Shown here: positions 16,537-53,365 of the stretch, piece after piece | Layout of the letters: every line of letters begins with the position of its first letter | Position numbering within the stretch: position 1 is the first letter of the stretch | DNA from: an uncultured Planctomycetales bacterium | GTDB lineage: Bacteria > Omnitrophota > Gorgyraeia > Zapsychrales > Fredricksoniimonadaceae | DNA: 63,064 bases | NCBI GenBank assembly: GCA_964487685.1 | Contig: CAZASA010000003.1 | Location: forward strand, 1 to 63,064 | Direction of reading: 5' to 3' | The notes under the pieces: generated by a model | Database searches by the model: none | Seen by the model: the letters and a program-made list of their open reading frames with translations, nothing else | What the model was told of the DNA's origin: nothing | Translations under genes and position numbers: made by a program

Positions 16537-16704
16537 GCGGGTCCTGGCTCGTCGCGTCATTCAGGTGCTCCTGCGAGCAACTGCGAGTGTCGGTTAATCC
16601 GACCGAGCAGAATCGTTTAGCTCAACGGCCTTGAAAGGTGGTTTCCCTATTTAGGTCCGGCCACCGTTGCCGTGCGCCCCTGAACGACGCTCCTCGCCAC
16701 CCGC
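16537..16704 (-). ncRNA. Candidate structured RNA (6S-like rod) or composite REP-derived element
   Basis: Ends pair (GCGGGU/ACCCGC, GCGUC/GACGC, GUUCAGG/CCUGAAU); two internal hairpins; TATAAT at 16722-16717. Family not confirmed. Confidence 0.45.
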
Positions 16705-16737
16705 CGCAAACGAGAAATTATAATAGCCGAATATGTG

Positions 16738-17265
16738 CTATGACTTTGCCTTCATCATAGGCGTGGTCGCAACTGGCTTTGTTTCAGGTGCCGCATCCTG
16801 GGTATCAATAAGCTCATGCAGCAAAGCCGCGGACTTAAGCATATTGTCCCTGTCCTGCTGGGCCTGGAAGATCTCAAAGCTGTGACGGGCCGCCAACACC
16901 GCCGGCAATTTCTTGCCTGACATCTTGTCAGCAATGCTCAGCATATAAAAGATCGTCCCATCATCCGGGAAGGTCTTACCCGCGATCTCAAGGAAATCAG
17001 CCGCATGGTCATATTCCTGGATCTTAAGGAGGATCTGGCCTAAGAGCAAATAGGCTTCAGGTTCTGAAGGGTTGACCTTGATGGATGTCTCAAGGTCCAT
17101 GATCGTGGCATTCAAGTCTTTATTTTGAAGATCATTCAAGCTCTTCATGATCAATTTATGGCCGACATCTTTGCGCTGATCGATGTCAGGCTGTTGCTGA
17201 CTCTCTTGTTTTTGACAGCCGACAAGGGCAAGAAGGGAAACTAAAACGAACAAGATCTTTTTCAT
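16738..17265 (-). CDS. TPR-repeat lipoprotein
   Basis: Lipobox LVGC after MKK plus a hydrophobic stretch; TPR-like EAYLLLGQILL. Confidence 0.8.
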   Translation of the reverse strand: MKKILFVLVSLLALVGCQKQESQQQPDIDQRKDVGHKLIMKSLNDLQNKDLNATIMDLETSIKVNPSEPEAYLLLGQILLKIQEYDHAADFLEIAGKTFPDDGTIFYMLSIADKMSGKKLPAVLAARHSFEIFQAQQDRDNMLKSAALLHELIDTQDAAPETKPVATTPMMKAKS

Positions 17266-17306
17266 AAAACGCTCTCTTTCTTTTAGGCCGCTACAGCGGG
17301 GTGTTC

Positions 17307-18794
17307 TTAAGCCTTTTGGTTAATTGTCATTAAATATTGATGCACTCCCTGTGCTGCGCTACGTCCTTCATAGATCGCCCACACCACCAACGACTGGCCG
17401 CGGGTCATATCACCTGCCGTAAAAATTCCTGGTATTGATGTCATTTTATGCGCATCGGCCACAACATTCCATCGAGCATCAAGTACAACACCCAATTGCT
17501 CCAACATCCCTTTTTTAACAGGTCCGGTAAATCCTAACGCCAAAAGTAATAGATCGCAATCCATGTCAAATTCCGATCCCGGAATTTCGCTCATCTTCAT
17601 CTGACCGCTGGCCGGGTCTTTTTTCCAATCAAGACGCACCCCGTGTAATTTCTTTAATTGGCCGTTTTCACCGCTTAAACGTTTGGTCATAATGCCGTAA
17701 TCACGGACACACCCTTCTTCATGGGAGCTGGAAGTCCGCAAAATAAATGCCCAGTTCGGCCATGGATTGTCCGCCGCGCGATTCTCCGGAGGCTTGGGCA
17801 TCAATTCCAGCTGATGCACGCTTAAGGCCCCCTGACGGATCGCAGTGCCCACACAATCCGACCCTGTGTCCCCGCCGCCTAACACCACCACGTGTTTTCC
17901 CTTGGCCGTGATTTCTTCCAATGAGGACGGCTTGACCTGCAGGACCGTATCCGCATATTTGGACATAAAAATGTTTGTCGGGGCTTTATTATCACGCAGG
18001 TTTTGCTGAGGCAAAAAATACATGGCCTGATAAACGCCTTTTAATTCCCGCCCTGGTACTGGAAGTTCCCTGCCGGCCTCAGCTCCGCCGCATAAAACGA
18101 TGGCATCAAACTTCTCACGCAATTCTTGGGTCCCGACATTGACGCCAACATGGGCGTTGGTCTTGAACACCACCCCTTCTTCGCGCATGCGGTCAAGCCG
18201 GCGAGTGACAAACTTTTTCTCCAATTTAAAATCAGGTATCCCTAAAGCCAATAAGCCCCCTAAGATTTCATTCTTCTCATAAACCGTGACCTTGTGTCCC
18301 TTTTTATTCAGTTCATCCGCGCAGGCAAGCCCCGCGGGTCCGGAACCAATGACAGCCACCTTCATGCCGGTGCGATGCTCTGGCACTTGGGGCTTGATCC
18401 AGCCTTTTTCGTAAGCGTTCTCAACGATCGCCAGTTCAATGTTCTTGATGGTCACCGGCGGAGCATTGATGCCCAGGACACAGGAATTTTCACAAGGAGC
18501 CGGACAGACACGGCCGGTGAACTCCGGAAAATTATTCGTTTTATGCAGACGCTCGATAGCTTCTTGCCATCGGTCACGGTAAACAAGATCGTTCCAGTCC
18601 GGGATGATGTTGCCGATTGGACAGCCTGACTGGCAAAAGGGCACACCGCAATCCATACAACGCGCACCCTGGTTTTTTAATTCCTTGGCAGCCGGAAGAT
18701 GCGTGAATTCATTGTAATTTTTTATCCGGCGGGCTATATCGTCCTTCTTATAGTCCTGCCGGTCATATTTCATGAAACCTTTAATATCACCCAT
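17307..18794 (-). CDS. gltD: Glutamate synthase small subunit
   Basis: RCMDCGVPFCQSGCP, GRVCPAPCE, GSGPAG, GGGDTGSDC, GQSLVVWAI. Confidence 0.97.
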   Translation of the reverse strand: MGDIKGFMKYDRQDYKKDDIARRIKNYNEFTHLPAAKELKNQGARCMDCGVPFCQSGCPIGNIIPDWNDLVYRDRWQEAIERLHKTNNFPEFTGRVCPAPCENSCVLGINAPPVTIKNIELAIVENAYEKGWIKPQVPEHRTGMKVAVIGSGPAGLACADELNKKGHKVTVYEKNEILGGLLALGIPDFKLEKKFVTRRLDRMREEGVVFKTNAHVGVNVGTQELREKFDAIVLCGGAEAGRELPVPGRELKGVYQAMYFLPQQNLRDNKAPTNIFMSKYADTVLQVKPSSLEEITAKGKHVVVLGGGDTGSDCVGTAIRQGALSVHQLELMPKPPENRAADNPWPNWAFILRTSSSHEEGCVRDYGIMTKRLSGENGQLKKLHGVRLDWKKDPASGQMKMSEIPGSEFDMDCDLLLLALGFTGPVKKGMLEQLGVVLDARWNVVADAHKMTSIPGIFTAGDMTRGQSLVVWAIYEGRSAAQGVHQYLMTINQKA

Positions 18795-18823
18795 TTATTC
18801 CTTAACTCCCCATCATTTTGTTC

Positions 18824-18902
18824 GTCATTCCCGCCCAACGCACTGTCAACCCCCCTGTCCAGCAAAGAAAGCATCCATCATTGACATATAAGCGGGAATC
18901 CA
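18824..18902. repeat. CGTC-type REP interrupted by a 56-nt loop insert
   Basis: GTCATTCCCGC + 56 nt (18835-18890) + AGCGGGAATCCA; flanks resemble the 5284 copy (TTGTTC...). Confidence 0.85.
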
Positions 18903-18924
18903 CTTTTAAGAAAATATATCCGTG

Positions 18925-21900
18925 TCAGCCAATATGGCCACTATGTACATTGTCCGTGTTCTTGATCGCTTCAGCCTCTTCGATGACCCTGCGGTAATCC
19001 CTCGGATAAACCTTGATAAATTGGCCTAATGTCTTTGACCAATCATCCAATATTCCCTTGGCCACCGTTGACTGGGTGTATTTTAAATGTTTTTCGATCA
19101 ACCCTTTTAGTTCCGCGATATCTTTTGGATCTTTAACAGGGAAAAGGTCGACCATGCCGGTATTACAATTCTTATGCGAAAGCCCTTCACGGTCCCACAC
19201 GTAGGCGATCCCGCCCGACATCCCCGCGGCAAAATTACGTCCGATAGGTCCTATGACGACGACCCTCCCGCCGGTCATGTACTCGCAGCCATGGTCTCCC
19301 ACTCCTTCAACCACCGTCGATGCGCCGGAATTACGCACGGCAAAGCGTTCGCCGACAAGTCCGCGGAAATAAGCTTCGCCTAAAATAGCGCCATACAAGA
19401 CCACATTGCCCGCGATCATGTTCTCTTCAGGGACAAATAATGCGCCCTTGGGCGGATAAATGACGATCCTGCCGCCGGAAAGCCCCTTGCCCACATAATC
19501 GTTGGCCTCACCTTCAAGGGTCAAGCTCACCCCATGGGCCAGAAAAGCGCCAAAGCTCTGTCCTGCCGAGCCTTTAAATTTAATTTGGATCGTATCATCA
19601 GGCAATCCCGCCAATGCATATTTACGGGCGATCTGGCTGGATAGCATAGTGCCGACCGTCCGGTTGATATTACGGATATTGGCTTCGATCGTCACGGGCG
19701 TTCCATGATCGATGGCCTCTTGGCTTTGGGCGATCAAGGCGTTGTCCAGGGCCTTATCCAGCCCGTGGTCCTGGGTCGTGCTGTGGCGGATGCTCACACC
19801 CTTGGGCACGTCAGGGCGATGCAAAATTTTCGTCAGATCAACACCCTTGGCCTTCCAGTGGTCAACAGTGTCCCTGGTATCCAGCATATCGACACGGCCA
19901 ACCATGTCCTCAAACTTCCTGACGCCCATGGAGGCCATGATCTCGCGCACTTCCTCGGCGATAAAAGTAAAGAAATTGACCACATATTCCGGCTTACCGT
20001 CAAATTTCTTGCGAAGTTCCGGGTCCTGGGTCGCAACCCCGACCGAACAGGTGTTCAAATGGCATTTGCGCAGCATAATACAGCCCATCGTGATCAAGGC
20101 TGTGGTAGAAAATCCAAATTCATCCGCGCCCAGCATTGCCGCGATGACCACGTCACGGCCGGTCTTTAATTGTCCGTCGGTCTGCACCCGGATACGGCCG
20201 CGCAGATCATTCATCACCAGGACTTGCTGGGTCTCGGCAATACCCAATTCCATGGGCAGGCCCGCGTGTTTAATGGACGTCTGGGGAGAAGCTCCGGTGC
20301 CTCCTTCAAACCCGGAGATCAGTACATGGTCAGCCTTGCCTTTGGAAACCCCGGCCGCGACCGTACCGACACCTACTTCCGACACCAATTTGACAGAGAC
20401 CATGGCCTGAGGATTTGAATTTTTCAGGTCATGGATCAATTGGGCCAGATCTTCGATGGAATAAATATCGTGATGAGGCGGCGGTGAGATCAATTGCACG
20501 CCCGGCGTCGTGTGACGGGTATACGCAATTTCCTTGGACACCTTGTGCCCCGGCAGCTGGCCGCCCTCGCCGGGCTTGGCTCCCTGGGCCATCTTGATCT
20601 GCAGCTGGTCCGCATTGACCAGGTATTCGATCGTGACCCCAAAACGTCCCTGAGCCACCTGCTTGATCCGGCTGCGGCGCCAATCACCGTTAGGGTCTTT
20701 CTTAAAGCGCACGGCATCCTCGCCGCCTTCACCGGTATTTGAAAATCCGCCTAACCGGTTCATGGCAATGGCCAGTGTCTCGTGGGCTTCACGGGAAATG
20801 GAGCCATAGCTCATGGCCCCGGTGGCAAAACGTTTAACAATGCTCGACGCAGGCTCGACCTCTTCAAGAGGGATCGGTGTCTTATCCTTGAATTTGATAA
20901 GACCGCGGATGTTGGCCAATTGCCGGCTATGATCATTGACCGCTTTAGAAAATTGTTTAAAGACCTGGAAATTACCGGAACGCGTCGCGTGCTGCAAAAG
21001 GGCTATCGTCGTCGGGTTTAACTGATGGTACTCAGCTTCTTTACGCCAGGCATATTCCCCGCCTTCATCCAGCATCCCGTCATTCGACGGCCATCGGGGA
21101 TAACCCTTTTCATGGCGCATCATCGCTTCCTGGACCACGGTCGCTATGTCGATCCCGCCGATGCGTGAGGGTGTTGCCGTAAAATATTTATCGATCAATT
21201 CCTGACCCAGGCCCACCGCTTCAAAGATCTGCGCCCCGCAATAGGATTGGATCGTGGAAATGCCCATTTTGGAAATGATCTTATAAAGCCCCTTATGGCA
21301 GGCTTTCAGGAAATTCTTCTCCGCATCCTTAAAGTCCATGGTCAGTTCAAATTTCGTATCCTTGAGCATCGCTTCAATGGTCTCAAAGGCCAGGTAAGGG
21401 TTGACCGCGTTGGCGCCATACCCGATCAGGACCGCAAAATGATGCAATTCCCGCGCGTCCCCGCATTCGACCACGAGGCTGACCTTTAGGCGAGTCCCCT
21501 GACGTATCAAATGATGGTGCAAGCCGGCGCAGGCCAGCAGCGACGGTATCGGTACTTTCTTGGACGAAATGTCACGGTCAGAGAGGATCAAAATGCTAAT
21601 ACCCTCTTTGATGGCCTTGTCTGCCGCGGCACATAGTGAATCAAAGGCCTTCTCAATGGCCTCACTGCCTTCTTTTTTATCGAAGACCATCGGCAGTTTC
21701 AGGGCCTTTAAAGAACCCTGATTGACCCGGCTGATCTTTGCTAATTCTTCATTGGTCAAGACCGGATGCTGTATCCATAGCCGGTGACAATGCTGCGGGC
21801 CTTCTTCCAGCAAATTGCTCTCAGCGCCCAGCATCATGTCCTCGCCCATGATGATCTCTTCACGGATCGCGTCAATGGGAGGATTGGTCACCTGCGCGAA

Positions 21901-23457
21901 TAATTGTTTGAAATATTCAAATAAAAGTTTTGGTCTATCGGAAAAAACGGCCAGCGGTGTGTCAGCACCCATGGAGCCCGTGGCTTCTTCTCCCATGGCC
22001 ATGGGTTTTAAGATAATTTTCAAGTCCTCGATCGTAATACCGAAAGCGCGCTGGCGCTCCAGCAAGGTCTTTTCATCCAGGCCCGGCACTTTTTTGGGTT
22101 CGGGAAGGGTGCGGATATCGACGATGTTCTCCCTCAGCCATTTTTCATAAGGATGGCGTTTGGCATAAGTCCCTTTGACCTCTCGGTCATCGATGATACG
22201 CCCTTCGGTCGTGTCCACCAGGAACATTTTCCCGGGCTGCAAACGGCCTTTGCTGACGATCTTCTCCACGGGAACAGGCAATACCCCTGCTTCTGAAGCC
22301 ATGATCACAATGTCATCATTCGTCACCAAAAAACGCGACGGACGCAACCCGTTGCGGTCAAGCAATGCTCCCACATAACGTCCGTCGGAAAATGCCATGG
22401 CCGCGGGGCCGTCCCAGGGTTCCATCAAACAGGAATGGTATTCATAAAAAGCGCGCTTGGAGCGTTCCATTTCCTGGTGATTGCTCCAGGCCTCGGGGAT
22501 CATCATCATCATCGCGTGCGGCAATGAACGGCCGCAAAGAACGAGCATCTCCAGCACATTATCAAAGGTCGCTGTGTCCGAACCGTTAGGCACGACAATA
22601 GGCAGTACTTTCTTTAAGTCATCACCAAAACCTTTAGAAACAAACTGCTTCTCCCGGGTTTGGATCCAATTGAGGTTGCCCCGCAAGGTATTGATCTCTC
22701 CATTATGCGCGATATAGCGGTAAGGATGGGCCAAAGACCAGCTGGGAAAAGTATTGGTGGAGTAACGCGAATGCACCAGGGCTATCGCTGAGACCATCGT
22801 TGGGTCGCTTAGGTCCGGGAAAAACCTGTCCACTTGCTCGCTCATCAGCTGGCCCTTGTAAACAAGGGTGTGGCTATTGAGTGAACAAAAATAATAAAAA
22901 TTCTTTTGCGGCAAGGTGGAATTATAGACCTTCTTCCACAAGCGCTTGCGGATCACATAAAGTTTACGGTTAAAATCTTCCTGGGAAGTTTTAGCACCTC
23001 GGGCAATAAAAAGCTGTTTGAATGCCGGCATCACCGAACGGGCGACCTGGCCGATACTGCCCGGCTCATGGGGAACTGAACGCCAGCCGATCAATTTCTG
23101 GCCTTCTTCATGGATGATATGTTCGGTCCACTCTTCAATGATGTTGCGGTCATCGAGCGAGGTCGGCAAGAACACGAGCCCGGCACCATAATCACCGAAT
23201 GAAGGCAGCTCCAAATGGATCCTGGCCAATTCCTTGCGGAAAAAAGCATCCGGCATCTGGATCAGGATCCCGGCACCATCTCCGGTCAAAGGATCACAAC
23301 CGCATGCGCCGCGATGGGCCAAATTCTCCAGGATCTGGATCCCATGGCGGACCATATCATGGGATTTTTGTCCTTTGATATGCGCAATGAACCCAACACC
23401 GCAGGAATCATGCTCAAATTGAGGATCGTATAAACCTTGTTTTAAAGGAAGACTCAT
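18925..23457 (-). CDS. gltB: Glutamate synthase large subunit
   Basis: EHDSCGVGF, HSRYSTNTFPSW, KMAQGAKPGEGGQLPG, CHLNTCSVGVATQ, GXGXG C-terminal domain; 1510 aa. Confidence 0.98.
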   Translation of the reverse strand: MSLPLKQGLYDPQFEHDSCGVGFIAHIKGQKSHDMVRHGIQILENLAHRGACGCDPLTGDGAGILIQMPDAFFRKELARIHLELPSFGDYGAGLVFLPTSLDDRNIIEEWTEHIIHEEGQKLIGWRSVPHEPGSIGQVARSVMPAFKQLFIARGAKTSQEDFNRKLYVIRKRLWKKVYNSTLPQKNFYYFCSLNSHTLVYKGQLMSEQVDRFFPDLSDPTMVSAIALVHSRYSTNTFPSWSLAHPYRYIAHNGEINTLRGNLNWIQTREKQFVSKGFGDDLKKVLPIVVPNGSDTATFDNVLEMLVLCGRSLPHAMMMMIPEAWSNHQEMERSKRAFYEYHSCLMEPWDGPAAMAFSDGRYVGALLDRNGLRPSRFLVTNDDIVIMASEAGVLPVPVEKIVSKGRLQPGKMFLVDTTEGRIIDDREVKGTYAKRHPYEKWLRENIVDIRTLPEPKKVPGLDEKTLLERQRAFGITIEDLKIILKPMAMGEEATGSMGADTPLAVFSDRPKLLFEYFKQLFAQVTNPPIDAIREEIIMGEDMMLGAESNLLEEGPQHCHRLWIQHPVLTNEELAKISRVNQGSLKALKLPMVFDKKEGSEAIEKAFDSLCAAADKAIKEGISILILSDRDISSKKVPIPSLLACAGLHHHLIRQGTRLKVSLVVECGDARELHHFAVLIGYGANAVNPYLAFETIEAMLKDTKFELTMDFKDAEKNFLKACHKGLYKIISKMGISTIQSYCGAQIFEAVGLGQELIDKYFTATPSRIGGIDIATVVQEAMMRHEKGYPRWPSNDGMLDEGGEYAWRKEAEYHQLNPTTIALLQHATRSGNFQVFKQFSKAVNDHSRQLANIRGLIKFKDKTPIPLEEVEPASSIVKRFATGAMSYGSISREAHETLAIAMNRLGGFSNTGEGGEDAVRFKKDPNGDWRRSRIKQVAQGRFGVTIEYLVNADQLQIKMAQGAKPGEGGQLPGHKVSKEIAYTRHTTPGVQLISPPPHHDIYSIEDLAQLIHDLKNSNPQAMVSVKLVSEVGVGTVAAGVSKGKADHVLISGFEGGTGASPQTSIKHAGLPMELGIAETQQVLVMNDLRGRIRVQTDGQLKTGRDVVIAAMLGADEFGFSTTALITMGCIMLRKCHLNTCSVGVATQDPELRKKFDGKPEYVVNFFTFIAEEVREIMASMGVRKFEDMVGRVDMLDTRDTVDHWKAKGVDLTKILHRPDVPKGVSIRHSTTQDHGLDKALDNALIAQSQEAIDHGTPVTIEANIRNINRTVGTMLSSQIARKYALAGLPDDTIQIKFKGSAGQSFGAFLAHGVSLTLEGEANDYVGKGLSGGRIVIYPPKGALFVPEENMIAGNVVLYGAILGEAYFRGLVGERFAVRNSGASTVVEGVGDHGCEYMTGGRVVVIGPIGRNFAAGMSGGIAYVWDREGLSHKNCNTGMVDLFPVKDPKDIAELKGLIEKHLKYTQSTVAKGILDDWSKTLGQFIKVYPRDYRRVIEEAEAIKNTDNVHSGHIG

Positions 23458-23542
23458 ATTTTTCCCCTATTTCATCAGGGTCATATCTTGTTGGTTAGAA
23501 AAGGGTTATTTTATTATCATTCGTCGTAAAATGCAATTTAAA

Positions 23543-24679: not shown

Positions 24680-25346
24680 AGACCTCCGGGTGCATCTTGC
24701 CGATCATGGCTTGGAGCTTTTGCCTGTCCTGCACATGCCTTAATATTTGATCGAGGATAAAGGAAGTCTTGTACATCAACCCCAAATGCCTTGCCCCGTC
24801 CGTCACGATCTGGCTCTCATTTGAACCTAGTAAAGGCAAATAGATCCAGGATGATGTGAGCATTCTTTTAAAACTGGCCTTGGGTTCGACTAGCATGGCT
24901 TGGCGCAGCAAAACATCCGCTTGCTCATAGCGGGACTCGTCCATGTAGATCACGGCCAGATCATAATAATTCCAGAAATAATCCGGATAAAATCCGATAC
25001 CTTTCTTTAAGTACTCGATCGCTTTGGGATCGTCTTTTAAATAATGATAAAGATAACCCAGTAAGCCATACGCATCCCTCATTCCGGGGAATACCCGAAG
25101 CAAATGTTCGTAATAATCCGCAAAATACCTGATCCTGTTGGTATCCAGGGAAGCTCGATGGAAATTCAAGTCGCTGATATAATTGATCGGGTCAGGCCTA
25201 AGATTATTGATCGCCGTCATATCCGCCACGACAAAGGTCTGGCTGACATTCTGGGCAGCCCGGTAAAATATTACTAACAAAAATAGTGCCAGGATGATGT
25301 TGGCAGCGGGGAATAAGGTTTTTTTAAGGGCCTTGGTGACGGGCAT
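24669..25346 (-). CDS. Membrane-anchored TPR protein
   Basis: Start re-called at MPVTK; one TM, then DAYGLLGYLY...WNYYDLAVIY TPR-like helices. Confidence 0.7.
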   Translation of the reverse strand: MPVTKALKKTLFPAANIILALFLLVIFYRAAQNVSQTFVVADMTAINNLRPDPINYISDLNFHRASLDTNRIRYFADYYEHLLRVFPGMRDAYGLLGYLYHYLKDDPKAIEYLKKGIGFYPDYFWNYYDLAVIYMDESRYEQADVLLRQAMLVEPKASFKRMLTSSWIYLPLLGSNESQIVTDGARHLGLMYKTSFILDQILRHVQDRQKLQAMIGKMHPEVYAF

Positions 25347-28574: not shown

Positions 28575-28584
28575 TTATATAACC

Positions 28585-28634
28585 ACCATAACACCCGGTG
28601 TTAGGATCCTTCCTAACACCGGGTGTTGGGAAGG
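28585..28634. repeat. Second doublet of the CCTTCCTAACACCGGGTGTT palindrome family
   Basis: 17-bp inverted repeat 28590-28606/28611-28627; full unit at 28608-28634. Confidence 0.88.
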
Positions 28635-28637
28635 TTC

Positions 28638-30782
28638 TTACGCGTTCATCAATAACATTTCCGCATAACTCGGCAGTGGCCATATATTGGCCGGAACCAA
28701 CCCTTCGAGCTGGTCAATGGATTCACGCAGTTTACCCATGGCGCTGATGATCTTCGCTGCGTCATGTTTGGCTAACGCCGCATCCAAGGTATCCGAATTG
28801 CTCAAGGACAGCTCGATCAAGCCGGAGAGCCCCTTTAGCAATTTCTTTTGGCCGGTGGTCTTTCCAGCAGTGCCGACGGACTTAATGGTGTCCGCTAACT
28901 GTTTCTGGTATTCCATGGCCGCCGGGATCAGCATGGTGCGGGCGATCGTTGAGGCGCAATCGCCTTCCAGGACCTGCACTGTTTTATAAGCATGTTCGTT
29001 GATCTCAAAACGGGAAGCTATTTCTATTTCACTTAAAACACCATGCTTGACCAAGACCTGGACATTCTTCTTGGCCTTGATGGCTTCCAGGGCTTCGGGG
29101 GTAGCCTTCAAATTAGGCAGCCCGCGCTTTTTGGCTTCGATCTGCCACTCAGGGATATAATTATCCCCGTTATAAACCACCCGTTTATGTTTCTTGATGA
29201 TCTCTTGGAGGACTTTCTGCAGGCTGGAATTAAAATCTTTGCCCGCTTTCTTATCCGCTTCCAATTGATCACAGATATTTGAAACAGCCTCAGCCACGAT
29301 CGTGTTGAGGATCATGTTAGCGGCCGAAGGATTCTGGTTGGAGCCTACCGCGCGGAATTCAAACTTGGCACCGGTAAAAGCAAACGGTGAAGTTCGGTTA
29401 CGGTCAGTCGTGTCCTTGGCCAGGGACGGAAGGGAATCAACGCCCACATGAATGGAGCTTCCTTCCTTGGATGACTTGGCCCCGCCTTTTTCGATCTGCT
29501 CGATAATATCGGTAAGCTGATCGCCCAAAAAGATGGACACGATCGCCGGAGGCGCTTCATTGGCTCCCAGACGATGATCGTTACCCGCTGAGGCGACGCC
29601 TACGCGTAAAAGATCCGCATAAGTATCAACAGCCTTGATGACCGCGCATAGCAAGGTCAAAAACTTGGCATTTTCATGCGGGGTCTTTCCCGGATAAAGC
29701 CAGTTCTTACCGTCAGGACCTACTACCGACCAGTTATTGTGCTTGCCTGAACCGTTGATGCCCGCAAAAGGTTTCTCATGTAATAAACAGGCCAGCCCAT
29801 GCTTGTCAGCGATCTGACGCATAAGCTCCATGGCCATCATATTATGATCTACCGCCGTATTAAGATCTTCGTAGATCGGAGCGATCTCATATTGCGCCGG
29901 AGCAACTTCATTATGCCGGGTCTTGGAAGGCATGCCCAAACCCCATAAGGTCCGGTCCAAGTCTTCCATAAAGCCCATGATGCGGGGCTTAATGGCGCCG
30001 AAATAATGATCTTCCTGTTGCTGGTGCTTGGCCGGTTTTAGTCCGAACAAGGTGCGTCCGGTTTCAACCAAGTCTAAACGTGCCTGATAATGGGCCTTGT
30101 CGATGAGGAAATATTCCTGCTCCGGTCCGAGTGTGCAGTAAGCGCGTTTACCTTTGGTATCAATGCCGAAAAGTCCGGCCAAACGGCAGATCTGCTTGCT
30201 TAAAGCCACCATGGAACGTAATAATGGTGTCTTTTTGTCCAAAGCTTCACCGTGATATCCAATATAAAATGTCGGTATGCATAAGGTGGTAGCCCCTGGG
30301 CCTTCTTTGATAAAAGCCGGAGATGTCGGGTCCCATCCAGTGTAACCACGGGCTTCGAAAGTCGCACGCAATCCGCCTGACGGGAATGAAGAAGCATCCG
30401 GTTCTCCTTGGATCAATTCCTTACCGGAAAAATTCAATGTAACCCCGCCTGCATTGTCCCAAGCAATGAAAGAATCATGTTTTTCCGCCGTCACACCCGT
30501 CAATGGTTGAAACCAATGTGTAAAATGTGTCGCTCCTTTGGAAATGGCCCATTTTTTCATGGCTTCGGCCACTTCATCGGCAATGGAAGCATCCAGTTTG
30601 CCGCCCTCTTTAATGGTTTTTTCGATAGAAACATATGCTTTTGGAGAAAGCATTTCTTTCATGACCTTAAGGCTAAATACATTTTCTCCGAAATGTTCAG
30701 GCAAATGTTCACTGAAAGAACCATTGCAGCAGCTCTCTTCAGAACAAGCCGCCTGAATGACTTCTTCGCGAGCTTGACTCAT
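28638..30782 (-). CDS. glnA: Glutamine synthetase type III
   Basis: [71 protein letters not shown]; 714 aa. Confidence 0.96.
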
Positions 30783-30901: not shown

Positions 30902-30960
30902 AAGAATGGGGCACAGGCCTCCCGCCGGCTGACCGACAGGGCTTCCTGTGCCCCATTCTT
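30902..30960. repeat. 16-bp perfect inverted repeat with a 27-nt loop, probable glnK terminator or REP
   Basis: AAGAATGGGGCACAGG / CCTGTGCCCCATTCTT; on the minus strand it is followed by TTTCC. Confidence 0.75.
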
Positions 30961-43314: not shown

Positions 43315-43340
43315 GTCATTCCCGCGAAAGCGGGAATCCA
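43315..43340. repeat. CGTC-type REP
   Basis: Exact GTCATTCCCGCGAAAGCGGGAATCCA between nuoL and nuoM. Confidence 0.92.
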
Positions 43341-44846: not shown

Positions 44847-44849
44847 ATT

Positions 44850-46349: not shown

Positions 46350-46357
46350 ATTAACAC

Positions 46358-46384
46358 GTCATTGCGAGCGCAGCGAAGCAATCT
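46358..46384. repeat. CGTC-type REP, GTCATTGCGAG subfamily
   Basis: (C)GTCATTGCGAGCGCAGCGAAGCAATCT between convergent nuoN and REC genes. Confidence 0.85.
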
Positions 46385-46792
46385 CTAATTATTCCTTGAA
46401 CGATTGATCTCTTTGCGGACAGTGCTTAATAATTTTGGGTAATGCAGCGGCTTGGCAAAAGCGCGGTAGGATTCATTGCCGATGATGATGATAAGATCCC
46501 CTTTATCGTCCCTCACGTCAATGGTGTTGGTTGCAAAAACAATGGGGATATCTCTGGTGTCAGGGTCATTCTTTAATCGGGTGACAAATTCCCGGCCATC
46601 GCCATCCGGGAAAATCACGTCCATCAGGATCGCGTCAGGCTTTTGGGCTTTGGCGATCTTCAAACACTCTGCTTCGTTCCAGGCTAAAAGCACCTGATAG
46701 CCGTCATTGATGAATGCCTTTTCCGTCATTTTCTGCGCCACCGGATTATCATCAACCAACAGTATCGTCTTCGGGTTTTTATGCATGCGCAC
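46385..46792 (-). CDS. Single-domain response regulator (REC)
   Basis: ILLVDDN, DAILMDVIFP, IPIVF, AKP. Confidence 0.88.
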   Translation of the reverse strand: MRMHKNPKTILLVDDNPVAQKMTEKAFINDGYQVLLAWNEAECLKIAKAQKPDAILMDVIFPDGDGREFVTRLKNDPDTRDIPIVFATNTIDVRDDKGDLIIIIGNESYRAFAKPLHYPKLLSTVRKEINRSRNN

Positions 46793-46810
46793 TTCCCTGG
46801 ATTTAGCGGG

Positions 46811-46936
46811 TTATCTGGTATTGGTGTGAAAAACAGCGGTAAAAAGATAAATGAAGGCAATGGCCACGGCCATCATCGCGACAGCGGCAGCAACCAGCCC
46901 AAGGCCATTAAGCACTTCCCGGAATTTTTTATTCAT
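46811..46936 (-). CDS. Putative 41-aa single-TM protein
   Basis: My translation: MNKKFREVLNGLGLVAAAVAMMAVAIAFIYLFTAVFHTNTR; TGnTAACAT 7 nt upstream. Confidence 0.55.
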   Translation of the reverse strand: MNKKFREVLNGLGLVAAAVAMMAVAIAFIYLFTAVFHTNTR

Positions 46937-47030
46937 GGGTAATATGTTATCACAAAAAATAATCCTGCCAGGAACTTAATTTAACTTTCGAACTTTCGTG
47001 ACATACCATAAAGCGTGTAAATTACTCTAC

Positions 47031-47056
47031 GTCATTCCCGCGAAAGCGGGAATCCA
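47031..47056. repeat. CGTC-type REP
   Basis: Exact copy, 3' of the htrA-like gene. Confidence 0.92.
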
Positions 47057-47065
47057 TAAAAAAAA

Positions 47066-47995
47066 TTAAATTTGCGGCACGATGGCGACGATGATCTTTT
47101 CAAAATCACGGATAACCGTCAGCTTATACTCATGCCCTGCAACAGCCTTGGTCAAAAGCTTGTGGAGATCATCAATGGAGGCGATCATTTGGTCATCCAT
47201 CCCAATGATCACATCACCTGCCCGTAAACCAAAACGCTCTGCAGGACTGCCTGGTTCAAGACCGGTAATGCTTACCCCTGATTCAACAGGAGTTTTACCT
47301 ACATGCACCATGCCCTTGGGTAAGATGACATTCTGGACCATGACCCCGATGAACCCGCGGCGGACCTGACCGCTTCGCATCAGTTCAGTGGCAATAAATG
47401 TGGCGGTATTGGACGGAATGGCAAAGCACAGCCCCTGAGCCGGCAGGATCACAGCGGTATTGACGCCTATCACTTCGCTCTGGCTATTGAGCAACGGGCC
47501 GCCTGAGTTGCCGGGATTAAGGGCCGCGTCAGTCTGGATGATCTCTTCGATCAACCGCCCGGATTGCGAGCGCATGGAACGCCCCAAAGCGCTGATCACC
47601 CCTGCTGTAAGCGTGCATTGAAAACTATAGGGATTCCCGATGGCAATAGCGATCTGACCTACGCGCAAACGGCTGGAATCGCCTAATGGCAAGAAGTTCA
47701 GGTCATGCAAGCCGACGTGGATGACAGCAAGGTCTGTGTGCGGATCATCCCCTATCAATTGGGCTTCAATGCGGCGACCATCCACAAAACAAACTTCAAT
47801 GTGCCGGGCTTCATGGACCACGTGGCTGTTGGTGATGATGTAGCCATCCGGTGTAAAAACAAATCCTGACCCGCTGCCCTGCCCCTGATTCTTGACCAAA
47901 ATATTAACAACCGCGGAAGAAGCCTTTTGAAAAACACCGCTTACGGTCTGTGAATACGTATCCAATAATTTTTCATCAACGTTACGGAAATCCAT
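47066..47995 (-). CDS. HtrA/DegS-like serine protease with one PDZ domain, no signal peptide
   Basis: ITNSHVV, DLAVI, TDAALNPGNSGGPL, PDZ GSPAERFGLRAGDVI; AGGAGG SD before the ATG at 47995. Confidence 0.92.
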   Translation of the reverse strand: MDFRNVDEKLLDTYSQTVSGVFQKASSAVVNILVKNQGQGSGSGFVFTPDGYIITNSHVVHEARHIEVCFVDGRRIEAQLIGDDPHTDLAVIHVGLHDLNFLPLGDSSRLRVGQIAIAIGNPYSFQCTLTAGVISALGRSMRSQSGRLIEEIIQTDAALNPGNSGGPLLNSQSEVIGVNTAVILPAQGLCFAIPSNTATFIATELMRSGQVRRGFIGVMVQNVILPKGMVHVGKTPVESGVSITGLEPGSPAERFGLRAGDVIIGMDDQMIASIDDLHKLLTKAVAGHEYKLTVIRDFEKIIVAIVPQI

Positions 47996-48040
47996 GATCA
48001 ATCCCTCCTTTTAGCTCACTTATCTATTCTATCATAGCCG

Positions 48041-48673
48041 TCAAATATGAACTTTCTGGAGCTTCTCGATCTCTCGGGGATCCTTGATGGCCCCGATCAA
48101 TTTCGCTTGATGAATATCTTCCATCCCCGATTTATAATTGCCCTCACCAAAAAATGCGCTTGCCCGATTGATATACGCTTCAACAATAGCAGGGTTAAGC
48201 TCAGTGACCTCAGAAAAATCAATGATGGCTTTATCATAAATCTTTTTGTTATTATAGGCTCGTCCGCGGTTTAGGTAGGCAAAGGTTGATTTAGGCTTAA
48301 GTTCAATGGCCTTGGAACAATCTAAAATAGCCAGGTCATTTTTGCCTTTAGTAATATAGGCATTGCAACGGTTATTATAAGCTGATTCAAAATCGGGTTT
48401 GATGGCAATGGCCTTGCTGTAATCAGAAATAGCCTTATCAATCTTGCCCATCAATCCATACGCTTGTCCACGGTTAAAATAGGCGCTGGCGTATTTAGGG
48501 TTCATTTTAATGGCCTTGGCAAATTCTGTGATCGCCCCTTCAAGCTTGTTGCTCTTGGCCAAATTAATGCCCTTTTCCAAATCCCCCTTGGCCGTTTCCA
48601 GGCCCCAGGCATGGCCCGAGATCAACAGCATTCCCAGCAAAATAAGCACATTCATTTTCCTTGGGCTTCTCAT
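48041..48673 (-). CDS. Exported TPR-repeat protein
   Basis: Signal peptide ending AWG; five TPR units (AYFNRG, AYNNR, AYLNRG, AYINRA). Confidence 0.9.
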   Translation of the reverse strand: MRSPRKMNVLILLGMLLISGHAWGLETAKGDLEKGINLAKSNKLEGAITEFAKAIKMNPKYASAYFNRGQAYGLMGKIDKAISDYSKAIAIKPDFESAYNNRCNAYITKGKNDLAILDCSKAIELKPKSTFAYLNRGRAYNNKKIYDKAIIDFSEVTELNPAIVEAYINRASAFFGEGNYKSGMEDIHQAKLIGAIKDPREIEKLQKVHI

Positions 48674-48737
48674 TCTAAATCCTTAATTTAGCAAAATTCA
48701 ATGTACTCCGGTTTCTTTGAAAGGATTGATCTTATTC

Positions 48738-48762
48738 GTAGGGGCGGACCTTGTGTTCGCCC
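48738..48762. repeat. GTAG-type REP
   Basis: GTAG-GGGCGGA-CCTTGTG-TTCGCCC hairpin just 3' of nuoI. Confidence 0.7.
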
Positions 48763-48767
48763 GTTGA

Positions 48768-49370
48768 TTATTCGTCCATCAAACGCTTTTTATTGTAGAT
48801 CATGCTATTGCGGGAGTATTCGGCAATGTTGAGCTTTTGGGTGTCCATGCGGATGGCATCCTCAGGGCAGACTTCGACACAAAAGCCGCAATACACACAT
48901 TTGCCAAGGTCCAGGATAAATTCGGAAGGATATTTTTCAATATTAGGGTCTGGATGCTCGGCGGCGGTGATCTCAATGCACCTGGCCGGGCAGACCGTCT
49001 CACACATCATGCAAGCCACACAGCGGGGAGATCCGTCTTCACGTTTGGTCAAGCGATGGCGGGTCCGCAGCCGTGACGATAAAGGCCTGGGCATTTCCGG
49101 ATATTGATAGGTGACCGCTCCCTTGATATTCTTGCAGAGACCGAACAAATGCAGGATATGAAAGGTCACATTATAAAAGAAATGTTTCGAAGTCAGATAC
49201 AATCCGCTCCAGAGCATCGGCAGATAGGTGTTCTCCCAAGAATTCAATTCCCGGCGGTTGCTTTGTTTCCAGGCGCGCTTCATCTGAGAGACGCGCATGG
49301 CGGCAAAAGGGCCTTTGGGATCAAAATATTTTTCCAATTCCTGACGGCGTTTTTCCGTGGTGTTATCCAT
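48768..49370 (-). CDS. nuoI: NADH-quinone oxidoreductase subunit I
   Basis: CVACMMCETVCP, CVYCGFCVEVCP. Confidence 0.95.
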   Translation of the reverse strand: MDNTTEKRRQELEKYFDPKGPFAAMRVSQMKRAWKQSNRRELNSWENTYLPMLWSGLYLTSKHFFYNVTFHILHLFGLCKNIKGAVTYQYPEMPRPLSSRLRTRHRLTKREDGSPRCVACMMCETVCPARCIEITAAEHPDPNIEKYPSEFILDLGKCVYCGFCVEVCPEDAIRMDTQKLNIAEYSRNSMIYNKKRLMDE

Positions 49371-49372
49371 AT

Positions 49373-50458
49373 TTATCCTAAAAGAGTTATCACGATCGCG
49401 GTGATGGCAATATTAAGCAAGGACACCGGTAACAATATTTTCCATCCTAAATTCATCAGTTGATCATAGCGGAATCGCGGCAGCGTCCAGCGCACCGCCA
49501 TCAAGACCCAGATAAAGAAAGCGACCTTGGTAAAGAAAGACAATATCCCTAAAAGTACCACCGGCAAATTAGTCATGGCCACATGAGCACCCCATGGGAA
49601 ATAAAATCCATCCGCATGCAGATACGGCACCTGCCATCCCCCAAAAAACAAGGTCGTCATCAAGGCCGAGACCAGCACGGTTTCAACCAGGTCCGCTAAA
49701 AAGAACATCCCGAATTTCATGCCGCTGTATTCCACAAAATACCCGATGATCTCTGATTCCCCCTCGGGAAGGTCAAATGGTGTGCGTTTGGTCTCTGCGG
49801 TGGCCGCGGTCAAAAATAAAAAGAACGCCAAAGGCTGGACAAAGACCCCCCATTTAGGAAGCCAGCCGCCAAACATAGTGGCGCCTTGCGCGCGGTCCAG
49901 GGCCTGAAGGTCGAGCGTATTAAACACCATGATGACCCCCATGATGGCAGCCCCCATGGTAATCTCGTAGGCGATCATCTGTGCCGCCCCGCGCATCCCG
50001 CCTAAAAACGCGTAATTATTATTGGAAGAAAAACCAGCCAGGACAACCCCATAAACGCCCATGGACATCATGGCAAAGATAAAAATAAGCGCGATATTAA
50101 GGTTAGCCGCCTGCAGCTCGATCACATGCCCGTTCATCACCAAGGCGCCACCAATGGGGATGGCCGCAAAACCAACAAGCGCAAAGATGACGGATAAATA
50201 AGGGGCCAAATTGAACAAAAATTTATTGGCCCCCTCAGGCATGAATTCTTCTTTACTAAGCATCTTAAGCACGTCGGCAATAGCATGGAAAAGGCCCATG
50301 GCCTTAAAACCAAAAATGGACGCTCGATTGGCCCCGATGCGGTCTTGCATCACAGCGCTTTGCTTGCGCTCAACCCAGGTCAAAAGTCCGGCGATGTTAA
50401 ACATAATAAACAAAGTGCCGGCGCTTAAAATGAATTTGATCAGGATATCAGTCATCAT
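49373..50458 (-). CDS. nuoH: NADH-quinone oxidoreductase subunit H
   Basis: WVERK, QDRIGANR, AETKRTPFDLPEGESE, LPRFRYDQLM. Confidence 0.96.
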   Translation of the reverse strand: MMTDILIKFILSAGTLFIMFNIAGLLTWVERKQSAVMQDRIGANRASIFGFKAMGLFHAIADVLKMLSKEEFMPEGANKFLFNLAPYLSVIFALVGFAAIPIGGALVMNGHVIELQAANLNIALIFIFAMMSMGVYGVVLAGFSSNNNYAFLGGMRGAAQMIAYEITMGAAIMGVIMVFNTLDLQALDRAQGATMFGGWLPKWGVFVQPLAFFLFLTAATAETKRTPFDLPEGESEIIGYFVEYSGMKFGMFFLADLVETVLVSALMTTLFFGGWQVPYLHADGFYFPWGAHVAMTNLPVVLLGILSFFTKVAFFIWVLMAVRWTLPRFRYDQLMNLGWKILLPVSLLNIAITAIVITLLG

Positions 50459-50459
50459 A

Positions 50460-52046
50460 TCAGCCTTTTAGGACCATTCCTTTATCAGAGATCTTATCAT
50501 AGGTCATTTCGGCAAATGACGGGACCGTTGCCGCTATATCTTTAAAAATATCTTGAGCATGTTTATAGGGCATGGCCGCGCCTAATTTGGCGCTTAGCAT
50601 AGCCATAATTTCCCAATCACCTTTGGATTCTGCCATCGGCAAAAACGCCGGCCAGATGCGCTGGACCTTTTGTTGGCAATTGGTAAAGGTCCCTTCTTTT
50701 TCCGCGTAAACACTGCTGGGCAGATTTAAATGGGCATAGGAGCAAGTCTCATTGATATTACTGCCCTGAAAAACAATGAGCTTCACTTTATTAGCGATCT
50801 CTTTGACCGTGTCTTTGCCATAAAGGGTGATCAGATCATGGCCAAAGACATATAAAAGATCGATCTCACCCTGCTTGGCCTTTTGGATGATCTGGTTAGC
50901 CTCCCCATTGATCTCAAGGACCTTCATGGCGCCTGCGGTATTGGGATTTTTGTCCGCTTTCATCAGGAAATCATCGCTGTCTCCCTGTTTTTGGGGCACT
51001 TTAAAATCAATGTACGTACCGGGAAGGGTGTCTTTAAAAAGCTTGCGGATAACAAATAGGTCTTCATTGGTCAATTGGGCAGAGGCCAAAACACCGATCC
51101 TGTTAGTGCGTTTAGTGTCTTTGAACCCTTTGATCACTGTAACAATTGTATCAATAGCCTTGTCCCAGGCGATAATCTCATCCTTAAGCTGGGGATGATG
51201 GATCCTGTTCTCATCGATAAAATGATAATTATAGCGTCCCTTGTCGCAGATCCAATAATCATTGACCTCAGGATTATGGCGGGGCTTAAGACGCATCACC
51301 CGTGCCGACTTAAACTGATGCGGGCGCATCTTGTCCCATTCAACCGTGATATTGCATCCCTGGCTGCAGCCAGGGCAAACTGACTTTGTTTGCGCCAAAT
51401 ACCATACCCGGCATTTAAAACGGAAATCTTTGTCTGTCAATGCGCCCACCGGACAGATATCAACAACATTGCCGGAATAATTATTGTCCAATTGCTTGCC
51501 CGGATACACATCCAACTGAGAATGGTCCCCGCGGCTAAATACGCCGAACTCGCTGGTTTTGGTGATATGGTCGGCAAAACGGACACAGCGCGTGCAAAGG
51601 ATACAGCGCTCCTGGTCAAGCATCACGGTGGGGCCGATCGAAAAAGCTTTCTTTTCTTTTTTGACCTTCACATCAGCCAATCGGCTGTCGTATTGGCCAT
51701 GCTCCATATAATAATCCTGCAGTTTGCATTCCCCTGCCTGGTCGCAGACCGGGCAATCCACCGGATGATTGACAAGCAAGAATTCCAACACGGTTTTGCG
51801 GACCTCAACGACCTTAGGCGAGTTTGTCTTGACCACCATGCCGTCGGTTACCGGTGTGTAACAGGCGATCTGCATCTTGGATTGTTTTTCAACCTCCACC
51901 ATGCAAATACGGCAATTGCCCGACACCGGCAGGGCCGGATGATAACAGTAACGAGGGATGGTGATCCCCAGTTTATCCGCGGCCTGAATGATCGTTGTCC
52001 CCGCAGGGACTTCTATGTGTTTCCCATCAATGCTTACGTTTGGCAT
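50460..52046 (-). CDS. nuoG: NADH-quinone oxidoreductase subunit G (short, 528 aa)
   Basis: GNCRICMVEV, HPVDCPVCDQAGECKLQ, RCILCTRC, CPVGAL, CPGCSQGC. Confidence 0.94.
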   Translation of the reverse strand: MPNVSIDGKHIEVPAGTTIIQAADKLGITIPRYCYHPALPVSGNCRICMVEVEKQSKMQIACYTPVTDGMVVKTNSPKVVEVRKTVLEFLLVNHPVDCPVCDQAGECKLQDYYMEHGQYDSRLADVKVKKEKKAFSIGPTVMLDQERCILCTRCVRFADHITKTSEFGVFSRGDHSQLDVYPGKQLDNNYSGNVVDICPVGALTDKDFRFKCRVWYLAQTKSVCPGCSQGCNITVEWDKMRPHQFKSARVMRLKPRHNPEVNDYWICDKGRYNYHFIDENRIHHPQLKDEIIAWDKAIDTIVTVIKGFKDTKRTNRIGVLASAQLTNEDLFVIRKLFKDTLPGTYIDFKVPQKQGDSDDFLMKADKNPNTAGAMKVLEINGEANQIIQKAKQGEIDLLYVFGHDLITLYGKDTVKEIANKVKLIVFQGSNINETCSYAHLNLPSSVYAEKEGTFTNCQQKVQRIWPAFLPMAESKGDWEIMAMLSAKLGAAMPYKHAQDIFKDIAATVPSFAEMTYDKISDKGMVLKG

Positions 52047-53293
52047 ACCCGGCCTTTGATCTTATCCTCAAATTCACTGCGAAATTTACTGACGTAACTG
52101 CCCACTGACATGGACACCGCGTCCCCAAATGCACAGATCGTATTGCCGCCGATATTGTTCACAATACCCGGCAAATTGTTTAGGTCATGCGGCCTTGCAT
52201 GGCCTTCATAGATCCTCTTCACATTGCGATACACCCAGCCGCTGCCCTCACGGCAGGGAGAACACTGGCCGCAGGATTCATGCGCAAAAAATCTGGCCGC
52301 GATCATGGCCGCCCAGACCATGTCCGTCGTATCGTCCATGACGATGATCCCGCCTGAGCCTGCCATGGAACCGATCGCTTTTAGGGAATCGAAATCCATT
52401 TTCACATCTAATTGGTCCGGTGTCAGGATCGGCGCTGATATCCCGCCGGGGATCACTGCTTTAAGTTTACGTCCGTTAGGGATCCCTCCGGCATGATCGT
52501 AGATGATCTCACGCAAGGTCGTGCCGTTGGGGAGTTCATACACGCCGGGCCGGGCCACATGGCCGCTGACACAAAACAATCGATTGCCGCCGTTTTTCTC
52601 ACATCCCAATTTGGCAAACCACTCCGCCCCTTTGTTGATGATGGGCGGGACACAGGAAATAGTTTCCACGTTATTAATGACTGTTGGACAGCCGAACAGG
52701 CCGACCACCGCCGGAAATGGCGGTTTTAAGCGCGGAAAACCTTTTTTTCCTTCAAGTGATTCCAACAAAGCTGTTTCTTCACCGCAAATATACGCCCCGG
52801 CACCTGGATGGACCACGATATCAATATCAAAACCTGTCCCAAAGATACCCTTGCCTAAAAATCCCGCCCTGTAGGCCTCATCAACCGCGCCCTGCATGAT
52901 CTGTAATGCATTCACATATTCCCCGCGGATATACACATAGGCCTTATGGCTGTTGATCGCAAAACACGTGATAATGATCCCTTCGATCAAACCATGCGGG
53001 TCTTGTTCAAGGATATATTTGTCCTTGAACGTCCCGGGTTCCCCTTCGTCGGCATTGATGACCAGATATTTGGGCTTGGGATTGGCTTGCGGGATAAAGC
53101 TCCATTTGGTGCCCGCCGGAAAACCGGCCCCTCCAAGCCCTCTGAGATTAGATTTCTTGACCTCATCGATCACTTGTGGCGGCGTCATTTGGGTCAAGGC
53201 CTTGCGCGCCGCCTGATAACCATTATCTTTCAGATAATTGATCAGGCGGTGCGAATCTACCAATCCAAAATGACGTGAAACTATTTTTTCCAT
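52034..53293 (-). CDS. nuoF: NADH-quinone oxidoreductase subunit F
   Basis: LRGLGGAGFP, NADEGEPG, GAGAYICGEETAL, ESCGQCSPCREG; start re-called at MEKIV (the track's extension is REP-derived). Confidence 0.96.
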   Translation of the reverse strand: MEKIVSRHFGLVDSHRLINYLKDNGYQAARKALTQMTPPQVIDEVKKSNLRGLGGAGFPAGTKWSFIPQANPKPKYLVINADEGEPGTFKDKYILEQDPHGLIEGIIITCFAINSHKAYVYIRGEYVNALQIMQGAVDEAYRAGFLGKGIFGTGFDIDIVVHPGAGAYICGEETALLESLEGKKGFPRLKPPFPAVVGLFGCPTVINNVETISCVPPIINKGAEWFAKLGCEKNGGNRLFCVSGHVARPGVYELPNGTTLREIIYDHAGGIPNGRKLKAVIPGGISAPILTPDQLDVKMDFDSLKAIGSMAGSGGIIVMDDTTDMVWAAMIAARFFAHESCGQCSPCREGSGWVYRNVKRIYEGHARPHDLNNLPGIVNNIGGNTICAFGDAVSMSVGSYVSKFRSEFEDKIKGRVCQT

Positions 53294-53309
53294 AACAAAA
53301 ACTTCTAAT

Positions 53310-53365
53310 GTCATTCCCGCGAGCAACTGCGAGTGTCGGTTAACCCGACCGTAAGCGGGAATCCA
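53310..53365. repeat. CGTC-type REP with a 30-nt loop insert
   Basis: GTCATTCCCGCGA + GCAACTGCGAGTGTCGGTTAACCCGACCGT + AAGCGGGAATCCA. Confidence 0.9.

Follow-up and report, generated by a model that had tools for sequence, protein, structure and literature searches.

How does one short sequence come to lie both in the loop of a repeated hairpin and, elsewhere in the same genome, within what looks like a non-coding RNA (ncRNA)? The question arises from the 63,064-nt stretch of DNA analysed here (the window; contig CAZASA010000003.1, from an uncultured bacterium), in which a first-pass annotation had pointed to a 33-nt repeat with one copy in a hairpin loop and the other inside an "ncRNA candidate". 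Of several possible explanations we favour, with a probability of roughly 0.6, a process in which a 30-nt unit has repeatedly and independently entered hairpins of the Neisseria Transformation Sequence (NTS) or Ssn-related motif (SRM) type at one point, the composite then spreading as an NTS. That the unit is discrete, present in many copies, inserted at a fixed point, found in both orientations and accompanied by filled and empty alleles is directly observed, and the nesting of such cargo at a fixed point points to a means of inserting tiny DNA units into hairpin loops.

The repeat, GCGAGCAACTGCGAGTGTCGGTTAA(T/C)CCGACCG, is found at 16573-16605 and 53319-53351, both on the forward strand, with 32 of 33 positions identical as had been claimed, and the similarity of the two copies reaches 37 nt by extending 4 nt further to the left (TCC(T/C)GC). 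A chance origin can be excluded, as dinucleotide-preserving shuffles gave 0.00 matches to the 33-nt module. Its core is a sharp-edged 30-mer, GAGCAACTGCGAGTGTCGGTTAAYCCGACC, with a final base that is C or G among copies, and the window holds just two of these:

53321-53350, forward strand: 30-nt unit, TTAACC variant, consisting in the DNA fold of a 14-nt leader GAGCAACTGCGAGT, the hairpin GTCGG-TTAAC-CCGAC and a last C.
16575-16604, forward strand: 30-nt unit, TTAATC variant.

The predicted structure thus comprises a single-stranded leader of 14 nt and, behind it, a hairpin whose stem has 5 bp and whose loop has 5 nt. The observation that removal of 30 nt at 53.3 kb restores a canonical hairpin was confirmed: deletion of 53322-53351 gives exactly GTCATTCCCGCGAAAGCGGGAATCCA, and deletion of 53321-53350 instead gives the same hairpin with the loop GTAA, which also occurs in a cargo-free copy at L009:7796 (collected loci are given as L numbers). 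The copy at 16.6 kb, said to occupy the loop of a TCCTGC/GCAGAA stem, is indeed closed by a stem, if weakly, this being a 4-bp CTGC/GCAG and not the clean pairing proposed.

An exact 24-mer of the module matched one GTDB genome, and a 23-mer with one free position matched 29 metagenome loci. There were no copies in viral contigs, Rfam gave no match for the 30-nt unit or for the 170-nt element around the 16.6-kb copy, and a literature search with the module sequence returned nothing relevant. Across the 29 metagenome loci and the single GTDB locus the 30-nt borders are sharp and identical in at least 10 unrelated flank contexts, with conservation overstated by the collection of these loci through exact matches. 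In the rhizosphere metagenome that holds the organism, the summed contig depth over the unit is about 690-770, compared with 8-14 for single-copy flanks, and the assembly breaks at the unit, which is therefore a high-copy dispersed repeat. The NTS-like flanks GTCATTC...GAATC at both window copies might suggest that the module is simply part of a longer REP (repetitive extragenic palindrome) or NTS variant that always has the same flanks. This is already refuted by the variety of flank contexts, by five stem types, by two orientations and by copies that lack any hairpin flanks, and we regard it as exceedingly improbable. The module is thus an independent unit, as the first-pass annotation had proposed; it is found in five hairpin hosts and on either strand, and is not tied to one fixed flank.

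What, then, is the hairpin that receives it? The NTS, CGTCATTCCCGCGMAVGCGGGAATCYRG, and the wider SRM class were connected to a nuclease in 2025 (Nat Commun 2025, PMC11893778). According to that account, NTS/SRM hairpins are bound and cut solely as single-stranded DNA (ssDNA), a few nucleotides 5' of the hairpin, by SsnA, a 94-aa GIY-YIG protein for which loop identity is dispensable in vitro, changes and extensions at the loop being tolerated; the published gene layout is NTS-ssnA-NTS (PMC11893778). The window contains four exact copies of GTCATTCCCGCGAAAGCGGGAATCCA (at 5284, 43315, 47031 and 60681) and two more with enlarged loops, giving 6 NTS copies in 63 kb:

5284-5309, forward strand: canonical NTS with the empty loop GAAA, between carA and carB.
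43315-43340, forward strand: canonical NTS.
47031-47056, forward strand: canonical NTS.
60681-60746, forward strand: REPIN/BIME-like doublet in which a canonical NTS (60681-60706) precedes a type-B hairpin in inverted orientation, TGGATCCCCGATTAAAACATTCGGGGATGAC (60716-60746).
53310-53365, forward strand: NTS/SRM host with unit (configuration I), composed of GTCATTCCCGC, unit, GTAA and GCGGGAATCCA, between nuoE (53375-53839, reverse strand) and nuoF (52034-53293, reverse strand).
18824-18902, forward strand: NTS with an unrelated 59-nt loop cargo, between gltD and gltB.

The window hairpin matches the consensus at 26-27 of 28 positions, the 1-2 mismatches of the four canonical copies all lying at the outermost positions, and like the published motif it is multi-copy, has oriented, non-palindromic ends and occurs in many phyla (at least 120 species in a genome scan). 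At L075, from another phylum, a 94-aa GIY-YIG gene lies between inverted NTS copies, reproducing the published NTS-ssnA-NTS layout, and at L136 the gene occurs alone. On the grounds of the consensus match and of this layout elsewhere, the host hairpin is, by its sequence, a member of the known NTS/SRM class. The "canonical REP" of the first-pass annotation is therefore a real hairpin with four exact copies, though of NTS/SRM and not of RAYT (REP-associated tyrosine transposase) type. Neither the window nor some 640 kb of related loci yielded an ssnA gene, the genome being incomplete. The 30-nt unit itself was considered as an SRM and rejected by inspection: it fits the pattern on neither strand, as its head is GTCGG and not GTCWY, and it has no GTCAT head.

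Cargo in the loop is not restricted to the unit. The 59-nt cargo at 18824-18902 has its own TGTCAA/TTGACA inverted repeat, and no further copy of it was seen. NTS copies in other phyla (L045, L105, L132, L134 and L146; Syntrophaceae, Dechloromonas and other metagenome-assembled genomes, MAGs) also hold small nested hairpins in their loops, so that loop cargo is not peculiar to Omnitrophota; some of these nested hairpins adjoin the 3' arm, not the 5' arm. The window doublet at 60681-60746 (9-nt gap) is kept whole, at 94% identity, at an unrelated locus of another genome (L009:7796-7861). The nuoD-nuoE spacer of L159 (1400-1480) holds an NTS and then, in tandem, three copies of its 3' half together with spacer (AAGCGGGAATGACAATAAAGAA).

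Within its hosts the unit occupies one exact position. In 13 of 13 NTS-type hosts its 5' end directly follows the final base of the 5' stem arm, and behind it the loop of the host (GAAA, GTAA, TTTC or AAAACATT) remains intact. Five host stem types are represented (CCCGC, CCGGC, CCCCGC, CCCGA and CCCCGA), with the following arrangements:

Window at 53.3 kb and L027: CCCGC, unit, GAAA or GTAA, GCGGG.
L013, L017, L020, L023, L028/L032 and L036: CCCGC, unit, TTTC, GCGGG.
L021 and L023:4822: hosts with a CCGGC stem.
L009:1975, L019 and L021:297: type-B hosts, CCC(C)GAC, unit, (T/A)AAAACATTCGGG(G).

No target duplication is seen, the junction being ambiguous by one C at most, and the base preceding the unit is almost always C. 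The unit is found in both orientations relative to the asymmetric NTS ends (GTCA...TCCA). Simple inversion of the loop was rejected as the source of the two orientations, as the 4-nt host loop stays oriented with the NTS; insertion behind the 5' arm on either strand would give precisely the two forms seen, the stem being a perfect palindrome with the same 5' arm on both strands.

The main rival is a mosaic formed by recombination, where template switching, slippage or gene conversion among short palindromes produced a few founder composites which then spread, without any dedicated insertion. Such processes have been proposed for bacterial interspersed mosaic elements (BIMEs) and Neisseria intergenic mosaic elements (NIMEs). 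The junctions are difficult to reconcile with it, as CCGACC at the 3' side is followed by GAAA, TTTC or AAAACATT, which offers no homology for a second template switch; moreover, the same 30-nt borders recur in five stem types, on both strands and in non-hairpin contexts, and the host loop is intact. Recombination surely contributes, but it leaves identical borders across hosts, without homology at the 3' junction, unexplained, and as a complete account we consider it rather unlikely.

Filled and empty versions of one site were found at the nuoE/nuoF junction, which was compared between the window and 21 relatives. In 18 relatives the spacer is 0-23 nt long and contains no hairpin, L159 has a type-B hairpin and an NTS with a plain TTTC loop and no unit, L013 has an NTS with the unit in forward orientation, and the window has an NTS oriented as in L013 with the unit reversed. 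Empty orthologous sites, for which a search had been suggested, are thus present both as an NTS without the module and as a junction without a hairpin. A second site lies in a giant secreted-protein gene, where at a single alignment position L032 has an NTS with the unit, translated as VIPAKGRINRHSQLLAGIQ, and L031 carries this NTS with another nested palindrome as its cargo; the corresponding stretch of L029, on the evidence of the protein alignment alone, resembles an SRM-type hairpin of another kind.

In the process that we favour, the unit would have entered the NTS/SRM hairpin several independent times, always at the point where the 5' arm ends and the loop begins, on whichever strand, the palindromic stem offering the same 5' arm. 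Insertion would take place on single-stranded, folded DNA, with fixed polarity and no target duplication, and would depend on a strand-transfer enzyme acting in trans, possibly HUH/Y1-like or Ssn-associated. Arrays of units would arise afterwards by slippage, while the composite hairpin would persist and spread like any other NTS. HUH/Y1 single-strand transposases and rolling-circle elements behave in this manner. Cargo in the loop would be tolerated and neutral for the host element because the loop is irrelevant to Ssn recognition (PMC11893778). A bolder version takes the 30-mer to be mobile DNA of the smallest kind, a unit with one hairpin that is copied and inserted at the 5'-arm/loop junction of extruded hairpins by an ssDNA-acting enzyme (Ssn-associated or HUH-type) without target duplication, with NTS/SRM loops as landing pads on which cargo gathers, sometimes in frame in genes; this is tentative and to us more doubtful than not.

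A number of observations weigh against the favoured process, and several of them argue for the recombinational mosaic. About half of the distinct flank contexts are not hairpin loops: in a flank-pairing test, stems of at least 6 bp were found in NTS-type hosts alone, the 170-nt element reaching 4 bp, L015/L026 3 bp and several contexts none. The proposal that the module targets hairpin loops thus stands as a strong tendency but not as a rule, the more so as tandem arrays occur. These comprise four head-to-tail copies with a period of 30 in a long-read Omnitrophota MAG (L177:1048-1157), an array of the 21-nt 5' part and then the 9-nt 3' part (L185:698-759; periods 21 and 9) and a further tandem or half-unit array (L208:6526-6566), and from the periods of 30, 21 and 9 it is clear that slippage or recombination has a part in shaping the family too. 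The same unit-bearing doublet is conserved in L020 and L036, and many of the NTS-unit composites may reflect the spread of a few pre-formed ones and not new insertions. A mosaic origin is favoured also by decamer duplications (GAGCAACTGC twice), by the L159 arrays of the NTS 3' half and by the unequal depth among parts of the 170-nt element. Second copies that were present in the collected loci without having been selected for differ by 3-6 nt. L158, which at the nuo locus is the closest relative (88% nucleotide identity), has no hairpin, so that the hairpin itself has been gained or lost at nuoE/nuoF and the series is not a simple nested phylogeny, and no filled/empty polymorphism within one population was detected, there being no such joints in the assembled contigs.

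To these is added the outcome of the enzyme searches. Motif scans of some 640 kb of Omnitrophota sequence, the window among it, found no open reading frames (ORFs) of HUH/Y1 or GIY-YIG type, and when the SsnA-like protein of L075 was compared by tblastn with all collected sequence, it recovered L075 and L136 only and nothing in the Omnitrophota loci. A homology search with the same protein returned Methylophilaceae-type proteins only and is uninformative on the window lineage. Clustering of the genes beside the units gave no recurrent enzyme, just the giant secreted-protein family that carries units in frame. The RAYT or GIY-YIG genes that the first-pass annotation hoped to see beside the repeats, or other HUH genes, were thus not found in the sampled sequence, IS110-type genes not having been specifically screened. 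The varied flank contexts and empty alleles are consistent with the mobile unit then proposed, and because no such gene was found beside the units, mobility is inferred from distribution and not shown.

The second copy of the unit lies in the former ncRNA candidate:

16537-16706, forward strand: 170-nt mosaic palindromic repeat holding the unit, between a TPR lipoprotein gene (16738-17265, reverse strand) and lnt (15178-16533, reverse strand).

NTS-like flanks surround the unit here (CGTCATTC...GCAGAATC), and judged by these this copy may be a decayed NTS-unit composite. The element folds on both strands (z = -3.1 and -3.8), with two compensatory pairs among four copies. Its metagenome depth is 45-180, compared with 8-9 for the flanks; the ends at 16537 and 16706 are sharp, many flanks join there, and the unequal depth within the element indicates that it is a mosaic. 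In L016, L025 and L037 it is found at 89-95% identity in unrelated gene contexts. At the site it holds in the window it is absent from L217, L218 and L219, where the order gltD - TPR is conserved (lnt was recognised by eye in L217 only) and where other palindromes or a plain terminator-like hairpin lie downstream of the TPR gene. The core of the element was not found in GTDB genomes, Rfam gave nothing at the gathering threshold, and an E-value scan of 16400-16850 gave nothing credible. The sub-threshold matches at 16605-16664, to HTH-XRE on the forward strand (15.5 bits, E = 3.2) and RAGATH-32 on the reverse strand (13 bits, E = 1.9), are far from the cut-offs of 42-50 bits, share the common string GUGGC-GGAC..GGGAAACCA and are probably due to chance. 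The lack of an Rfam match, the high depth, the unrelated contexts and the absence at the same site in three relatives speak against a conserved ncRNA gene; the element is a copy of a dispersed multi-copy repeat. Downstream of the TPR lipoprotein gene the three relatives have three different long palindromes (L217:1740-1830, L218:1650-1800 and L219:1640-1680), which, together with the window element, mark this spacer as a hot spot for palindromic inserts.

By sequence comparison the window module belongs, as one subfamily, to an abundant, Omnitrophota-wide family of 30-nt units. The pattern GARCAACTGYGAGTGTCSGG was found at 49 loci, nearly all in Omnitrophota MAGs, some of them labelled Planctomycetales by automated binning. 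The main subfamily, GAACAACTGTGAGTGTCCGGYWTGAGGACC, is likewise 30 nt long, a third subfamily ends in GTCGGGYATGACGACC, and the MAG of L001 has both the module and the main subfamily. Sister units are found in the same settings: in NTS loops, where they directly follow the 5' arm (L174, L198, L215), within type-B loops (L182, L213), within further hairpins of SRM type (L179, L208, L211) and immediately behind ...GGGAATGAC (L201, L204, L206). There is also one larger repeat that contains the module in the case of L022 and the main subfamily in that of L188, L189, L193 and L207.

Copies also occur inside coding genes, in several reading frames. NTS/SRM hairpins and 30-nt units lie in frame in the variable linkers of the giant secreted-protein family, which has no Pfam match and carries the N-terminal motif LPxPGxMVxLSP...LKGIxVHPDNPFxFDFI; its homologues differ in the repeat at the same alignment positions (L032:2780-2850, L031:110-200, L033:3892-4745, L214, L200, L210 and L029). 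In-frame NTS copies were also identified in KsgA and at the N-terminus of a SurA-like protein (L033:5749-6543 and L033:1850-2845), and at L001:5-796 the module provides the last ~12 codons and the stop context of 6-phosphogluconolactonase (Pgl).

Such placements bear on a further possibility, that the unit is a functional cis-element, a selected binding site or a regulatory, RNA-stabilising or terminator-like RNA motif between operon genes. Its hairpin is kept by compensatory changes, the stems of the subfamilies being GTCC/GGAC, GTCG/CGAC and GTCGG/CCGAC, copies are found in intergenic spacers of operons, and metatranscriptome contigs contain the module, one of them spanning 16547-16685 at 88% identity, at a low depth that may represent DNA carry-over. 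Both orientations relative to transcription at the single nuoE/nuoF site, the in-frame copies in several frames and the tandem arrays nevertheless make this explanation quite improbable, most relatives also lacking the unit at orthologous sites and Rfam containing no match. A sigma-54 promoter, an attC site and a T-arm were rejected by eye on spacing or consensus.

The host hairpin and mosaic REP-like repeats are already known. A cargo-bearing loop agrees with the dispensable loop reported for SsnA, and natural loop cargo at a fixed point was not found described in the parts of that paper used here (PMC11893778). Our literature searches found no 30-nt unit family confined, according to the databases, to Omnitrophota, no nesting at one exact NTS/SRM loop point on either strand and no allelic series at a housekeeping junction.

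There is a general likeness to REP, BIME and REPIN repeats with their RAYTs, which are also short extragenic palindromes of high copy number with a single-stranded leader and hairpin, doublets, mosaics and presumed ssDNA handling. The unit differs from these in lacking a GTAG/GTGG head (it starts with GAGCAACTGC and its host with GTCAT) and in being nested at a fixed position in another repeat family, and no ORF with HUH plus Y motif was found in the sampled sequence, the genome being incomplete. NIMEs share the palindrome ATTCCC-N8-GGGAAT and interchangeable short repeat units, but there whole dRS3 copies flank RS units of 50-150 bp, whereas here a 30-nt unit lies between the two half-arms of one hairpin. 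IS1397/ISKpn1 (REP loops) and IS621/IS110-type elements (which target REPs) likewise insert specifically at the loop or centre of extragenic palindromes; these are autonomous, at least 1.3 kb long and carry transposase genes, unlike the non-coding 30-nt unit.

The absence of target duplication, the fixed polarity, the subterminal hairpin with a short leader and insertion 3' of a short ssDNA target are shared with IS200/IS605, with the non-autonomous palindrome-associated transposable elements (PATEs) derived from them and with the rolling-circle ends of IS91/Helitron type. PATEs, however, have two hairpin ends and insert 3' of a fixed tetra- or pentanucleotide; the unit has one hairpin, no TnpA gene was found, and the target is undefined save for the preceding C. 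Rickettsia palindromic elements (RPE) are likewise small palindromic repeats able to sit in frame in protein genes, but they are 100-150 bp long, unrelated in sequence and not nested in NTS loops. The unit is not a miniature inverted-repeat transposable element, since it has neither terminal inverted repeats nor target duplication, and a CRISPR repeat was rejected because copies are solitary or in head-to-tail arrays without spacers, so that the regular array pattern is missing.

The occurrence of a second repeat, 30 nt long, at one exact point of NTS/SRM loops, on both strands and in several stem variants, shows that the loop is permissive in vivo and apparently preferred for insertion, and unit and hairpin together form a concrete substrate pair with which to seek an enzyme that moves tiny elements. 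Demonstration of an insertion mechanism dedicated to the unit would make the system highly interesting. The units are also relevant to annotation, since they give rise to apparent "ncRNA candidates", lengthen ORFs or interrupt them in frame, and cause breaks in metagenome assemblies.

The window is one complete metagenome contig with housekeeping genes, namely carAB, lnt, gltBD, glnA3, glnB and those of the nuo operon. Its NuoE (called at 154 aa in the protein collection), NuoF and TPR proteins share 70-94% identity with proteins from Candidatus Omnitrophota MAGs and from unlabelled contigs of peat, rhizosphere and groundwater origin. Scans of the window for tRNA and tmRNA, and for Rfam families at the gathering threshold, returned none. 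A third, degenerate copy of the module had been seen in GCCGG-CTGA-CCGAC at 30924-30937; it has about 9-10 nt in common with the hairpin of the module, across an indel, and 0 nt with the 14-nt leader, none of 167 loci contains a match to it, and we ascribe it to chance. It forms the loop of a palindrome with a 13-bp stem (30905-30957; DNA fold z = -5.1) between glnB and the type III glutamine synthetase gene, which is single-copy in all sequence examined and terminator- or attenuator-like in look.

All six NTS copies (5284, 18824, 43315, 47031, 53310 and 60681) and both modules lie on the forward strand, the adjoining genes being on both strands, and the GC skew of the forward strand is negative over the entire window. 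The uniform orientation of the NTS copies may reflect a replication-strand bias, with SsnA cutting one strand only. A separate palindromic repeat family, ACCWYCCTAACACCSGGTGTTRGGA, unrelated to the NTS or the module, occurs at 1958-2022 and 28582-28639 of the window, as paired adjacent inverted copies at both sites, and at L016:431-476.

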